This document shows positions 18,001 through 24,000 of a stretch of DNA of 31,155 nt, one piece after another. How positions within the stretch are numbered: position 1 is the stretch's first letter; each line of letters begins with the position of its first letter. The DNA comes from Verrucomicrobiota bacterium (GTDB lineage: Bacteria; Verrucomicrobiota; Verrucomicrobiia; Limisphaerales; CANJXF01), in NCBI GenBank assembly GCA_038214755.1, contig JBBQRQ010000060.1, positions 1 to 31,155 on the forward strand, given 5' to 3'. A program made the position numbers.

Positions 18001-21000
18001 GTCGCTATTACCTTGGTGTGTATGGGTTCTTTCCCACCAATGGGATTACCTATTCCATCATGGCAACAGAAGGACCTGCTGCCGCCCCGCCGTTCGCGAT
18101 GTTGTCGCCCAGCATTTCCGCGAGCAACTTTCAAGTCACGGCCAACACCATCATTGGGCGGCAATATCAATTTGAAGTTTCGACCAACCTCATCACCTGG
18201 TCGCTCGTCTCCACCACCACCGCAACCGCAAATGTCACTACCTTCACGGATACAACTCCGCCTCCAACTCAGACTGCGCGCTTCTATCGACTAAGGTTGC
18301 TGCCTTGATAACTGTGTGTGCAACGTTTCGGCCGTGATAAACTGCGAAAAAAGTTTGCCGCAACCTAAAAGTCGGTACGTCTGAGGCCGTTTTGATGGTT
18401 ACGAATGTTCCTGCCGTTTTATGAATTCACCGACTCACCGATCCATTCCTCACTTGGCAGAGCATACGGCCGGAATAATTCGAGGTAACCCTCCTGCTCG
18501 TTGTAGAAGAGCGCGCGATGCAGGCCGAGCGAACTGGCTTTCGGATTGTCAATAAGGCTGGCGGAATCATTGGCGCTCATTTGGAAGAGCACGCGCATTT
18601 CAAATTCGCTGAACGCTTTTTTGCTCAGGAATCGATTCACATTGTTATAGGTGTCGCAAGTCGCGATCACGTGGATGCCGTGGCTCGGCCCTTCACTGAT
18701 AATTTTGTTCAACTGCGTGGCGGGATTGGCAGCGGCATCCGCGTCGCTCGAAAAACTAAAATCATCTTCGTAACGCAGCTTGCCGAATTTCTGGAGGCCA
18801 TGAATGACGAGGAAGGTCGTGGATGCATCGTTCGCGTCGCTTTGCTCGACGCGGTCTTTCAATTCAGTCGCAAGCCCGTTCATGATTTCCGGCAACTCGT
18901 TTTGCTTGGCAAGAGTTATCGTATTCGGAAGCCCGTTCGCAATGTTTTCGAAAAGCTCGTGCTGCGGCGATCCTGACGGATTTCCATCGAACAAAATAAT
19001 CCGACAAGTTCCTTCCGGAAATTGCGCGGCGAGAGAAACCAATCCCACGCCTAAAATCGCGAGAATGGCTTCGTCGCGTTGTCCGACGATGAGAAGATTA
19101 TTTCCGCTTTGCTTTTTGAAAACGACTTCGGTCGGGCCTTTGATGGAATTGGGCGCACCCAGCCAGATGCGAGCGACGCTTGGGGCTGTGATTGGTTTTG
19201 TCCGCAACAAATTCTGCAAAATTAAATTTTCACGAACGTCGGCGGGCGCGTCTCCTTCGAAAACAATTGGGCCCGGATAAATTTTTCCACTGGTCTCAGC
19301 GCGTCGTCGAACTTTCTCAAGGTAACTGTCGCGCACTTCGTCGGGGAGCCACACAGCTTGGAAAGGACTGTTGCCTTGAATATTTCCGGCCGCGTCGTTG
19401 TAAATTCCTTCGCCGGGCCGGGAGAGAAGACGCGGCGCTGGATTATTGTCGTCCATGATGAGATAGGCATCGGCTTCGTTACATTGCAGCGCGATACGAA
19501 TCACCATTTGACCCATCGTCGTGCGCGCCACCGTGTAAGCGCCGCCCAGAGTTTGCGAGCCGAGCAACACATGAATTCCGAACGCGCGACCTTGCCGGAC
19601 GATTCGATCCAGCAAGCCGGATGCGCTCTGAGAAATCCGATCATCCTCGACGAAAAATTCCTGAAACTCATCAACGATCAAAAGCGAACGCGGCATCGAT
19701 TCGGTTCCGCCCGCTTTTTTGTAGCCGGCAATGTCCTGGACGCCGAGCGCGCGAAACAAATCGCCGCGCCGTTTCAATTCGTGATCGATCCGTTGCAAAA
19801 CGCTCAGCCCAAATTCGCGATCGCTTTCAATCGCGACGACCCGCCCGTGCGGCAATTTGTTTTCCGCGTAACATTTGAACTCGACGCCTTTTTTGAAATC
19901 GATGAGATAAAATTCCACTTCATCGGGACTGCACCACAGCGCGAGGTTGGTGATGATGACGTGAAACAAAGTCGATTTGCCGGAACCGGTTTTGCCCGCG
20001 ACCAACGCGTGTTGACGAGTGCCTTTTCCGATGGCGAGATACTGCAATTTCGTCGCGCCCGTTCGGCCAATGGGCACGCGAAGTTCCGTCGTCGTTTCTT
20101 CGCTCCACATCTGCGCATCGGTTGGCGCGACGTGCTCGAACGGAACTTCGACACGATTTGAATCGCGGCTGCTCTTGCCAACTTTCTGAATAAAGTCCGT
20201 GACGAAATCCGCGGCGGGCGGAGCGTCGAGCAACAGATTTGTCCCGGGAAAAAATTTGCCGGCCAGCGTGAATTTATTTCCTTTGGCGACCAGCGTGACG
20301 CTGCTTTTCCGCAATTCATCTGGCACAAATTGCGGCGGCTCCGTTTGCGTATGATCCCAGTGAATCAACGTGTAAACGCCGCAGCGCGCGCCGCTGGTGG
20401 CGATGCTCAACAAACGTTTGGCTGCCACATCGCTAAAATTCGCGGGGAAATTTGCCACCACCAGAAAATGATATTTCTCCGCGATGTTGCCGGCTTGCTC
20501 GTTGTATTCGGCGATCGTCGCGTATTCATTTCGCAGATACATCTGGATGACTTTTTCCATGTGCTCGTTGAGGTCGGCGAGCTTTTCTTCGATTTGCGCG
20601 GGCTGGGTCCAAATGCGGTTGTTAATCACGTGCTCGGCCAGATCGGCGAGATGCATCACGCCCGAAAAATTTTGTCCAAGCCCAATCGGATCGATGACGG
20701 TGAAACTTAATCGCCCCGGCGGCGCGACAGAGAGCAGGCGCAGAATAATATTGTTCAACGCCGCGACGGCTTGCTCGCGCCCGGACTCTTTTGTTTCGAT
20801 CAGAAGGGAGCCTTCGTTTGGATAGGCGAGCAACAGCGGCGATGAAAATTGCCCGGGGCCGGGTAGAACCAGCCGCGGGTCTTTCGGAATTGCGCCCGCC
20901 AGTTTTTCGAGATCCACTTCCAAGTGAGCAAACGGCGCAGCCTGCTCAAAATTTTTCGGAGGCGTCCAATTTTTCCACGTGGAGAAATTCCAATTTGGAA

Positions 21001-24000
21001 AAATTTTTTCCGCGGTCAGGTTTACCGTGAGGATTGATTCATAAAGCGGCGTGATTTTAGTTTTCCAATCCACTTCCAAACTTCGCCATTCCTCTTGGTA
21101 ACGTGAATCGAGTTGCGATTCTTTTTCCGATGAAAGGTTTTTGGCTTCCATTTTTTGCGCCTGCGTATCGCGCTCAAAACTTTTAATCAATTCCTCGTGG
21201 TCTTCTTCCAACCGTTCGCGTCGGAAGCGGGATTGATCTTCATGCTGCGTAAAAACGCGCGTGTGTTTTGCATCGATTTGCGGCGGAGTCAGTCCGCGTT
21301 TTTCCGCGGCAGTTTCCAACGTCTCGCGCCATTCGTTTTCAATCCATTGACCTTTGTTTTTAAATTCGTTCTCGACACGCTCGACTTCGCGCGCGTAGCG
21401 CGAATCGCTTTTCGCCACGCAAATCTCATGCAGCCTCCCCGCTTTCACCAGCGCGTCGGCAATCGCCGTCGCCAGCGGCTTCGTCTGGCGTTGGCCGATC
21501 CAATGCAAAATAAATCCGACAACAAAAATTGCGCCCACCACCGCGCCTGCATCTCGATACGAAAAGGAATTGATTCCGAATTGTTGAAGGACCAGCACGA
21601 GTGGAACCAGGCAAAGCGCCAGCAGCGATAACGCGATGCGATGTTGGAAAACTTTGGGCAAAACAAATTTCTGAAAGCGCCCTAGATCCTCGCGCGTTTT
21701 GTTGAGCAGAGCATCCAGTTCCGCGATCAATTGATATTCATCTTTGGCGAGGTCGGATTCCGCCAGCTCACGCGAACCAGAAAGTGCGCGCACAAATTTC
21801 CCGTAACCTTTGAATGAGTCGCGCGCCTTTTTTTCCAACTCGGTCAAAACTTCTTTTTCCTGAGCGAGACTGGTTTTGAATTCGACGACGATTTTCTCCG
21901 CGTTGGCCCGCCCGCCTTCGTGCGTGCGATGCATCTGCATCGTCTCGGTTTGCAGTTTGTGTTTTCGGCGTCCTTCCAAATCAGCAATCGTGTCTAGCGC
22001 GCGTTTGTGGCTGGATTTGAGCGCGCGACCGATCCAGGACTTGCGCGCTTTGTATTTCGTCTCGGCGATTTCTTTTTGCGTCTGAAAATTCGCGCTTCTT
22101 TTCGCCAGAGTTTCCGCGAGGCGATGGTCCAATTTCTCAATCGTTTTATCGCGGCGCGATTGTTCGGCGGCGATGGCAGCGTGGAATTCCTGATTCAGTT
22201 TTTCCTCGCGCGCGGCGAAATCCGCGACGGTCTTTTGCAGAACCTCCACCAATTCCATCGTTTGCCTTACGCCGGCATGGCCGCGATTTACGTCGGAAAT
22301 CATCGGAGCGCGGACTTCAGTCCGCTTCAATGGTGATGCTTCATTTGAGATTAACATTTTTCCAATTTCCAAATTGAAGCGGCGTCAACGCCGCGCTCCT
22401 TGGCCTATTCGCAATCTGTCCGGATTTTGTGGAGAAGTTTGTCCAATTGATCCATCACTGCCACGGCGGTATCGACTCCGTCAAAAAGTTCTTCCAAATA
22501 TTTTCGCTCGAATTCTGCGCTCTTGGCGTCGCGCCAATATTCTTTCGTCTGCTTCCAATTCATCAACAACTCTTTGGTGATCGTCGCAAGCTGGGTTTTG
22601 TTGGCGCTCAAACTCACGATGAATCCTCCTCCGAAAAGGGTAGCGCGGGCGACCCGCCCGCCCCGGTTGGCGACCCGCCAACCGGAATGGGAGAGGCGTG
22701 ATTTTGTGAGCGACGTTTTTCTACACGTTGAGCATCTCCGCTCGTTCCGTCCGGCGAGTCGCCGGACGGGACAGGCGAGTCGCCTGTGCTACCCGTCGTT
22801 GGTGAAACGCCACCATAGGCTTGCAAGGACTTCACCGCCTCTCGCAAATACGCAATCGCTTCCGGCAAATTGCTCACGAGAACAGTTTGTAATTTTTCCA
22901 ATTGCTTGGCCAGCGGTTCGACTTGGCTCCCGAAATCGCGGTTCCATTTTTTTACGACCTTCAATTTTTCTTCCGCTCCCGCGAGAGCGCGTTTGGCCTT
23001 GAGCACTGCCATTCGTTCGGCGGAAGAGACTTCGCGCAAATTGGAAAGCTCCGCGCTGAACTGGGCCTGTTGCGCGTCCTGAAGTTTTTGCGTGGCGCGC
23101 CGCACTTGCGCTTCCCAAAAAACCCGGCGATCACTTTCGAGCCAGCCGCGCGCGCGAATCACATTGTCGCTGACTTCTTCGAGAGTGGGGCGCGCTTTGC
23201 TGAGGTAAACGATCAGGTTTGTGCGGAAAGATTCCAACGCTTCAACGGAAGTAACATTGGCGCGGGTCGGCATGTTAATGTTGTTTCAAATATTCTTCGA
23301 TGCGTTGCGCCTTGCGCAAAAGATACGGCGTGTGGTGTGTGGAGACTTCCACAAATTTTTTGAACGCCTTCATCGTCTGCCTAAATTCTTCGGAGAATTT
23401 TTCGTGCTCCTGATCTTGCCATGTGTCACCGAGAGCAGCGAAGCGCGCTTGCAACGAAGAAATTTTCGTCTGAAGATCGATGTTGAAACGTTTCAATTCC
23501 TCGGCGAACCGTTTCACTTCGTCGGGATCGATGATGGCCTGCGGCATGGAAATAGTTTAGGTGGGAAAAGTTTTCGAGGCAAACGGCAATGTGGTGAATG
23601 CATATCTGCGAGAACATCTTGAATGAAAATCCAAACGACTTAGACTCAAACGATGAAATTAATGCTCACCGCGGTTTATCGGAAGTTTCCCCAAGGCTAT
23701 GCAGCTTTTGTGGAGGAATTGCCCGGTGCGAATTCGCAGGGAGTCACTTTGGAAGAGGCGCGGATCAATCTGACTGAAGCGGTGGTAATGGTGTTGGAAG
23801 CGAATCGTGAACTGATGGAGGAAGAATTGCGCGGGCAAGATGTAATTCGTGAGCCGTTCGCTCTTGCATGAAGCGGCTGGATTTAATCCGGCATCTGGAA
23901 CAGCACGGATGCGAATTTCTGCGGGAAGGCGGGAACCACACTATTTACGTGAATCGAGCAGCGAAAAAAGTTTCTGCTGTTCCGCGTCATCGAGAAATCA

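Follow-up and report, generated by a model that had tools for sequence, protein, structure and literature searches.

A toxin-free cassette of WXG100-like proteins and an FtsK-type ATPase in a diderm verrucomicrobium: a possible stripped-down type VII exporter

Several accessory membrane proteins are required by the characterised type VII secretion systems, whose hosts are Actinomycetota and Bacillota. The locus described here consists of four genes within a window of 31,155 nucleotides (the whole stretch of DNA that was analysed, from contig JBBQRQ010000060.1 of the Verrucomicrobiota bacterium assembly GCA_038214755.1), and it raises the question that such a cassette would probe: can an EccC-type ATPase alone translocate WXG100 bundles, and does type VII export occur in classical diderms? 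A preliminary description had presented the locus as a minimal, type VII-like cassette in a diderm, a view in agreement with the best structural match of the ATPase model in Foldseek (the EccC cytoplasmic region 4nh0, E 4.9e-27), with two Omp85 genes in the genome and with accessory families not being found. Our answer is a tentative one, namely that the cassette, which belongs to the 'solo WXG + three-module FtsK ATPase' family and forms its branch with a membrane anchor and without a toxin, possibly acts as a type VII exporter reduced to few parts.

Four tightly coupled genes

The ORFs of the four genes, A to D, all lie on the minus strand with tight coupling, and the fixed operon order previously claimed from 20 loci held in 38 of 40 genomes of a different, larger sample, chosen for a full-length ATPase. 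Gene A (23275..23547) encodes a WXG100 hairpin of 90 aa, EsxA-like and of the HP0062 type, and is followed by gene B (23273-22614, 219 aa), by gene C (22405..22617), which codes for a truncated WXG100-like hairpin of 70 aa, and by gene D (18419..22303), which encodes an FtsK-superfamily ATPase related to EccC/EssC. C and D share a few bases in most relatives, whereas here a palindromic repeat (22305..22400, no strand assigned) separates them. Repeats of this kind occur genome-wide, those inserted in the tail of B giving 59 blastn hits across the genome and those in the C-D gap 41, self-hits counted. They account both for the length of B, whose product had been put at about 185 aa, and for a shifted start of the ATPase, previously given as 1312 aa: the frame of D is open from 22372, and its start is most likely the ATG at 22303, giving 1294 aa, which is the length of the database protein P0001. 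Promoter and terminator scans of the cassette performed no better than chance.

Gene A is the sole match in this genome to the Pfam family WXG100 (PF06013, E 4.9e-10, above the cut-off). Its likeness to HP0062 and EsxB, pointed out before, was borne out when its profile was compared with structures (3fx7, E 6.8e-11, and 4j42, E 1.8e-6); moreover, its hinge has the W-Q-D sequence of HP0062-type proteins and the conserved C-terminal helix ends in Y-L. Mean column identity reaches 80% across 25 homologs, and a phage collection searched with A gave no match. The WXG-like character proposed for the 70-aa third protein also found support, its profile matching WXG100 proteins of the HP0062 type at distant loci (29 proteins, best E 2e-6), with W-x-D, F and a C-terminal C invariant in the alignment. 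A Pfam search with C gave no match, and A, B and C showed no significant similarity to one another when their profiles were compared directly.

The conserved part of B, residues 1-154 (22812..23273), is a long two-helix hairpin, which the AlphaFold model (pLDDT 90) resolves into helices 4-76 and 84-154 of a 150-residue antiparallel coiled coil. What follows (22614..22811) is a low-complexity tail of varying length, delimited by alignment, repeat coverage and hairpins and lengthened here, in frame, by the palindromic repeats; such a tail ends B in all 68 loci read, with no nuclease fusion, and B occurs in one copy in 84 of the 85 genomes that hold it. The hhalign comparison with the nuclease carriers of related systems ran end-to-end, if weakly (E 6e-4, probability 28%, controls at E≥0.11), and gene B is probably the toxin carrier of those systems minus the nuclease. 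Longer fused homologs of B were not seen among 7999 candidates of 274-2000 aa, a weak test, and the best 150 of 2545 matches in a representative search were all of 112-244 aa. A search for the LXG domain (PF04740) gave no match, and one atlas cluster of 353 aa, with an Imm33-like domain in 64% of its members, has a score of 0.82, which is below the reliable range.

The ATPase and its membrane hairpin

Domain searches with D matched PF01580 (E 9e-35), while the scores for TIGR03924 EccCa (117 bits versus a cut-off of 509) and TIGR03928 (106 versus 778) stayed low. The model, which covers residue 160 onward, reads as a coiled coil, two membrane helices, a stalk, an EccC-type DUF, an active module and a degenerate module, an order that would correspond to EccC minus one domain. 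The N-terminal region of about 220 aa (21638..22303) takes the place of FHA domains, for which a search in D was negative; its modelled part is helical, and long coiled coils flank the membrane anchor on both sides in the model. Downstream of the anchor, the helical stalk and the first degenerate ATPase-fold module (20162..21493) were assigned by VIA-align as the equivalent of the EccC DUF, the module aligning with the DUF of EccC5 (8rin, Z 15.3, rmsd 3.8 over 225 residues), and stalk and DUF being both aligned with 7b9f, 6umm and 9qks. The sole intact module (19262..20152) carries Walker A, Walker B and downstream catalytic motifs and is closest to EccC ATPase 1, the best phmmer stretch falling within the first EccC5 ATPase. 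The single intact Walker A reported earlier was recovered at residues 793-800 (longest-frame numbering) and nowhere else, and the motif is confined to the middle module in D and in 70 loci; Walker B of this module is D901-E902, and the catalytic columns are invariant. The terminal degenerate module (18446..19258), which gave no Walker A match, aligned in VIA-align with the EccC D2/D3 chains 9jv8, 6j17 and 6jd5 (Z ~20) and, by analogy, is a candidate docking site for the C-termini of WXG100 proteins.

The two membrane helices had been stressed in the preliminary description, and they are indeed present (21494..21637; hydrophobic segments at 246 and 275, with Kyte-Doolittle values of 2.33 and 2.07 and a loop of about 10 residues), following a helical N-terminus that lacks FHA domains. 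However, no other part of the ATPase is so poorly conserved: conservation of the top residue is ~0.47-0.51 in the N-terminal region, has its lowest value (0.40) in the 251-300 block and reaches 0.83-0.92 in the active module. Of 71 full-length close homologs, 68 retain at least one hydrophobic segment, as do 105 of 106 database proteins, while the hairpin is deleted in frame in 3 of the 71 (L017, L058 and L078). All three loci retain A, B and C, and L017 stands on a supported tree branch separate from that of L058 and L078; this clean loss, which took place at least twice, weakens the reading of D as a pore. No hydrophobic segment above the threshold was found in the Caballeronia, Rhodococcus, Helicobacter and G160 relatives.

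Inheritance, surroundings and possible function

That the cassette is kept across about half of the order, a statement based on 61 genomes, is consistent with a different, larger sample, in which the ATPase was matched in 88 of 151 order genomes (E≤1e-30, a count that takes in fragments and, for G432 at least, a match to a distant class only) and in 71 of the 110 high-quality ones. The 63 order genomes without a match indicate that many lineages can dispense with it, and in a sample of the phylum the ATPase was matched in 17 of 401. One homolog (P0082) is assigned to a cultured bacterium, Pedosphaera parvula Ellin514. A, B and C are all upstream of the ATPase in 66 of 69 loci with sufficient flank. 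The cassette is single-copy and largely vertically inherited: the ATPase and RpoC trees have 11 of 38 splits in common (random maximum 3; Mantel rho 0.70), with some supported conflicts, and of two pairs submitted to the AU test one was rejected and the other (G330+G495) was not (p 0.51). Its neighbours are ordinary metabolic genes, none of them found to be recurrent, with an integrase gene directly downstream at 3 of 69 loci and no vWA, PP2C or conjugation gene among 163 neighbouring or inserted ORFs scanned. The adjacent convergent subtilase was considered as a mycosin and rejected (54 bits versus a mycosin cut-off of 279, not a recurrent neighbour).

The absence of other type VII membrane components from the operon, noted earlier, extends to the whole genome (97% complete), in which no detectable homologs of YukD (EsaB), YukC/EssB, EssA, EsaA, EccB or EccD were found by searches that were positive in control genomes. 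No cargo was detected, no toxin is fused or adjacent, and no outer-membrane step is encoded.

As an exporter, the cassette may work as follows. A and C would pack on the long hairpin of B into an elongated helical bundle, by analogy with the LXG-Lap tripartite bundle in which Lap proteins pack on the LXG domain (PMC10801868). This bundle would dock onto the terminal module of D, which might oligomerise in the inner membrane and, by means of its single active module, drive the bundle across, most plausibly into the periplasm only. As no toxin is attached, the exported bundle itself, or a cargo encoded elsewhere, would carry the function. Export is favoured by the EccC-like succession of membrane helices, stalk, DUF and active ATPase with a WXG100 partner, by the upstream position of A, B and C and the retained hydrophobic segment, by the LXG-Lap precedent, by the weak alignment of B with the carriers and by the gene order of relatives: A, carrier, C and ATPase, with a nuclease and an immunity-like gene, are common to the loci of a Caballeronia plasmid, a Helicobacter plasmid (L084, with an HNH nuclease and a SMI1/KNR4 gene), G160 and G260. 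On the other hand, it is disfavoured by the poorly conserved hairpin, lost in L017 and L058/L078, by the relatives lacking a hydrophobic segment, and by membrane partners, cargo and outer-membrane step all not being found. It is unlikely that a type VII system has been domesticated in the Verrucomicrobiota/PVC clade, with a single membrane protein sufficing as a working translocon in the inner membrane of a diderm. Its export would be either the bundle of three proteins, free of toxin and serving in housekeeping or in the envelope, or a cargo encoded elsewhere; if true, no type VII machine would be simpler, and nature would have supplied a minimal model of the EccC pore.

A serious though somewhat unlikely alternative to export is an intracellular conflict or stress switch, in which the ATPase would hold or remodel A-B-C at the cytoplasmic face, with the hairpin as a tether, and let it go when triggered, for instance by phage infection; in relatives a nuclease is part of the released unit, and here, after loss of the nuclease, the bundle would serve as signal or adaptor. 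Relatives without membrane helices do reside in TerY-P/CoCoNuT defence loci, next to genes for vWA and PP2C proteins, kinases and helicases, PMC11090510 holds a mechanism other than EssC-type export to be likely for these associated ATPases, and the repeated loss of the membrane hairpin points the same way. Nevertheless, the conservation of A, the single copy, the metabolic neighbours and the largely vertical descent are unlike most defence islands, no effector is present, and PADLOC matched only generic FtsK/HerA or coiled-coil stretches, and nothing in A, B or C. Quite improbable is a membrane-remodelling or envelope scaffold, whose long hairpins would form polymers on the inner membrane or insert into it, with the ATPase assembling or disassembling them. 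The coiled coils of B and of both sides of the D anchor, a likeness to hairpin polymers and the housekeeping-like inheritance argue for it, whereas fold searches with B returned only generic coiled coils (best Z 11, within the chance range of helical bundles), its alignment has no visible hydrophobic tip, and 63 of the 151 order genomes gave no match. It is highly improbable that D is an FtsK/TcpA-like DNA translocase or conjugation coupling protein to which the small proteins are accessory: the active module aligns with FtsK motors (Z ~21-22) and TcpA (Z ~21) and the database name is FtsK/SpoIIIE, but three tandem modules with a DUF/stalk match are features of EccC, a separate FtsK frame of 961 aa exists in the genome, and the ORFs scanned held no conjugation gene.

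Relation to known systems

The cassette shares with the canonical T7SSa (EccC) and T7SSb-j (EssC/TsxC) systems (PMC11217815) a membrane-anchored FtsK-type ATPase, a stalk, a DUF and a WXG100 protein. In contrast with them, it has three nucleotide-fold modules instead of four (DUF, D1, D2 and D3), no FHA domain and no accessory core components that could be found, in a host with an outer membrane. This survey by Garrett et al. (2024) contains neither 'Verrucomicrob' nor 'Helicobacter'. The 'minimal WxG + FtsK' set of Helicobacter pylori, HP0062/HP0066 (PMC4978471, PMC3397514), has in common with the cassette an HP0062-type A, a diderm host and a clustered FtsK-type ATPase; however, Helicobacter clusters bear an HNH-type nuclease (PMC4978471), and the ATPase of L084, compared in place of HP0066, has 823 aa and no hydrophobic segment above the threshold.

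The novelty implied by the preliminary description was overstated. Note 6 to Table 1 of Zhang et al. (2012; PMC3482391) already records, in verrucomicrobia and planctomycetes, a solo WXG with a three-domain ATPase of which the middle domain alone is active. Bell et al. (2024; PMC11090510) describe a nuclease-carrying form whose ATPase lacks membrane helices, and mention stand-alone copies, citing Anantharaman 2012. Their CoCoNuT/TerY-P module has the same N-terminal coiled coil (>200 aa) and three ATPase modules, of which the central one is active, and it likewise includes a coiled-coil protein besides two WXG100-like proteins. In those systems the coiled-coil protein carries a fused D-ExK nuclease and is followed by a DNA-mimic-like gene in vWA/kinase/phosphatase loci, whereas the cassette has membrane helices, no nuclease and no vWA, PP2C or kinase flanks.

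In the literature searched, from which subscription journals were mostly absent, no experimental study of the solo WXG and three-module ATPase module was found, nor anything about the cassette in the Tn-seq literature on Planctopirus and Verrucomicrobium spinosum. As the family has been noted since 2011-2012, the value of the cassette is that of a concrete test system rather than of a first sighting: with four genes in 5 kb it is small enough for expression in a laboratory host, and natural forms exist with and without the hairpin and with and without the nuclease. Like the module of Zhang et al. (PMC3482391), it has three HerA/FtsK modules with the middle one active and an adjoining solo WXG100 gene in a diderm lineage. 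Unlike here, their note mentions no membrane helices and no B or C gene and calls the systems mobile, while the clade described in this work is single-copy and mostly tracks the RpoC tree, with some conflicts. What is new is a clade that combines membrane helices with the absence of a toxin.

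Organisation and spread of the cassette

The fixed four-gene cassette proposed in the preliminary description is real. It consists of four minus-strand ORFs of contig G000:C60 with gaps of a few bases, and all four genes occur in order in 38 of 40 Limisphaerales genomes selected for a full-length ATPase and RpoC, the exceptions being G495, truncated at a contig end, and G521, which shows no A in the 2.5 kb fetched. Besides the ATPase gene D, the ORFs are A (90 aa), B (219 aa) and C (70 aa). Short palindromic repeats, present at dozens of genome sites, sit in frame in the tail of B (window 22640-22800), so that B is long in comparison with its homologs (160-237 aa), and between genes C and D (22305-22400), which places the likely start of D at 22303 (1294 aa, as in the database ATPase P0001). 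The repeats also lie in frame at two places (24530-24690 and 24940-25070) of a Ser/Thr kinase gene at 24138-26876.

In G+C content the cassette (0.528) equals the genome (0.527). On one side it is flanked by a convergent subtilase gene (11304-18308; 2334 aa, bearing a P-domain plus laminin G and PPC domains), which closes a pseudopilin cluster, and on the other by a divergent HicBA-like pair (HicB-like and HicA genes, 23653-24053). The type II secretion/type IV pilus-like cluster (9-11307) holds GspF/PilC, five prepilin-type genes, a BrnT/CopG-like toxin-antitoxin pair and a 1410-aa protein weakly resembling Verru_Chthon cassette protein A.

At E<=1e-30, the ATPase is matched in 88 of 151 genomes of the order (71 of the 110 of high quality) and in 17 of 401 genomes of the phylum, and a protein database search returned 7989 matches among 8000 scored candidates. 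Of the 85 genomes with B, 84 carry one copy. In the 80 best of the 583 loci listed from the genome collection, A, B and C lie upstream of the ATPase in 66, contiguously in 55 of these; the other 14 comprise 11 loci cut by contig ends, L034 with no C match, and L063 and L065, where A, B and C are all absent within 8 kb of the ATPase. In these last two loci the ATPase and small genes appear unlinked, as they do in genomes G539 (contigs C15, C2) and G289 (C21, C20), where they lie on different contigs; an unrelated gene of 2015 aa precedes the ATPase of G289. The C-D junction gathers insertions (ISL3 transposase, RhuM fragments, PIN, HNH) in six loci (L044, L045, L061, L074, L075 and L080) that retain the flanking genes.

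No recurrent neighbour genes were found beyond small clades. When 60 upstream, 69 downstream and 34 inserted ORFs were scanned against Pfam, most of the genes recognised were metabolic or housekeeping ones. Three integrases, three transposases and a small number of toxin-antitoxin or HNH genes also appeared, many ORFs had no match, and families of the vWA, PP2C or immunity kind were absent. Trees of the ATPase and partial RpoC from 41 genomes agree in 11 of 38 splits (at random, mean 0.16 and at most 3) and give a Mantel rho of 0.70 (permutation maximum 0.44). RpoC nevertheless conflicts with 6 of the 16 ATPase splits with FastTree support of at least 99. In AU tests with 16 taxa, on pairs picked after the trees were seen and with binning errors possible, the same-genus pair G440+G514 was rejected (p 0.0006) and G330+G495 was not (p 0.51). 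With one marker gene as reference, we read this as predominantly vertical inheritance overlaid by some replacement.

Anatomy of the ATPase

Residues 160-1317 of D were modelled with a 41-sequence alignment (pLDDT 77, pTM 0.45), and the top Foldseek matches were the cytoplasmic regions of EccC and EssC (4nh0, E 4.9e-27). The stalk and first module align to the EccC5 DUF domain (8rin, Z 15.3) and to chains of ESX-3, ESX-5 and YukB that comprise stalk plus DUF. FtsK motors match the middle module (Z about 21), and EccC D2/D3 the terminal one (Z about 20). In sequence the active module is nearest the first ATPase of EccC5. Given these module-by-module matches, the layout of three domains with the middle one active probably reads as a DUF followed by D1 and a single terminal domain, a mapping based on position and on these alignments.

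Conservation peaks in core blocks of the DUF and active modules (0.81-0.92) and is lowest (0.40) at the hairpin of two membrane helices. One of 106 database proteins lacks this hairpin. Three of 71 full-length homologs, all in intact cassettes (L017:5326-9069, L058:7077-10805 and L078:7986-11699), carry a clean in-frame deletion of about 50 residues that removes both helices. Since several supported branches of hairpin-bearing sequences separate L017 from L058/L078, it was lost at least twice.

The small proteins and their distant relatives

A is a WXG100 protein of the HP0062 type with unusually high conservation, C a shortened WXG100-like hairpin, and B is modelled as two long helices, for which fold searches gave no specific structural match. 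In distant relatives the position of B is held by a carrier that is joined to a nuclease; next come an immunity-like gene, one of 70-80 aa and finally the ATPase. This arrangement occurs on a Caballeronia plasmid, within a vWA-PP2C-kinase-helicase locus, on a Helicobacter plasmid with HNH and SMI1/KNR4 genes, and in genomes G160 and G260. Alignments of B (144 sequences) and of carriers (111) match over their whole length, first helix to last (E 6e-4, probability 28%), against E 0.11-0.82 for controls with reversed or unrelated coiled coils. Together with synteny, this profile match suggests that B may be the carrier without toxin.

Further family classes (L093 at G442:C2, L082 on a Deinococcus plasmid, L089-L092) have small helical genes reordered or paired. 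Some of them encode a third protein that is long and all-helical, with no nuclease evident; both the L093 class and a cassette like that of the window are present in G442.

Possible function and known systems

Searches of the 97%-complete genome for the YukD, YukC, EssA, EsaA, EccB, EccD and LXG families found nothing, while positive controls were detected; two Omp85 genes and an FtsK separate from D are encoded. Export across the inner membrane is our leading proposal for the function, held at slightly under even chances, and its main rival, an intracellular conflict or stress switch, is judged less likely.

The literature searched gave no description of the membrane-anchored, toxin-free, largely vertical PVC branch that this cassette represents, and a term search of PMC3935865 had no hit; supplements beyond that literature may describe the membrane-anchored form. 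Published accounts cover related ground: WXG100 proteins in Verrucomicrobiae and Lentisphaerae, citing Sutcliffe 2011 (PMC6471051); HP0062 (PMC3397514) and the H. pylori pair of WxG plus FtsK, termed a minimal type VII set (PMC4978471); T7SSa-j defined with four NTPase domains (PMC11217815); the LXG-Lap three-protein helical bundle (PMC10801868); and a hairpin-less coiled-coil three-module ATPase accompanied by a coiled-coil nuclease and two WXG100 proteins, stand-alone copies being mentioned (PMC11090510). PMC3482391 lists verrucomicrobia and planctomycetes among lineages with solo WXG domains and a distinct YueA-like ATPase that has three HerA/FtsK domains, the middle alone active, and terms such sets mobile T7SS versions. 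The cassette is not a canonical type VII system; it is a member of a family noted in 2012.
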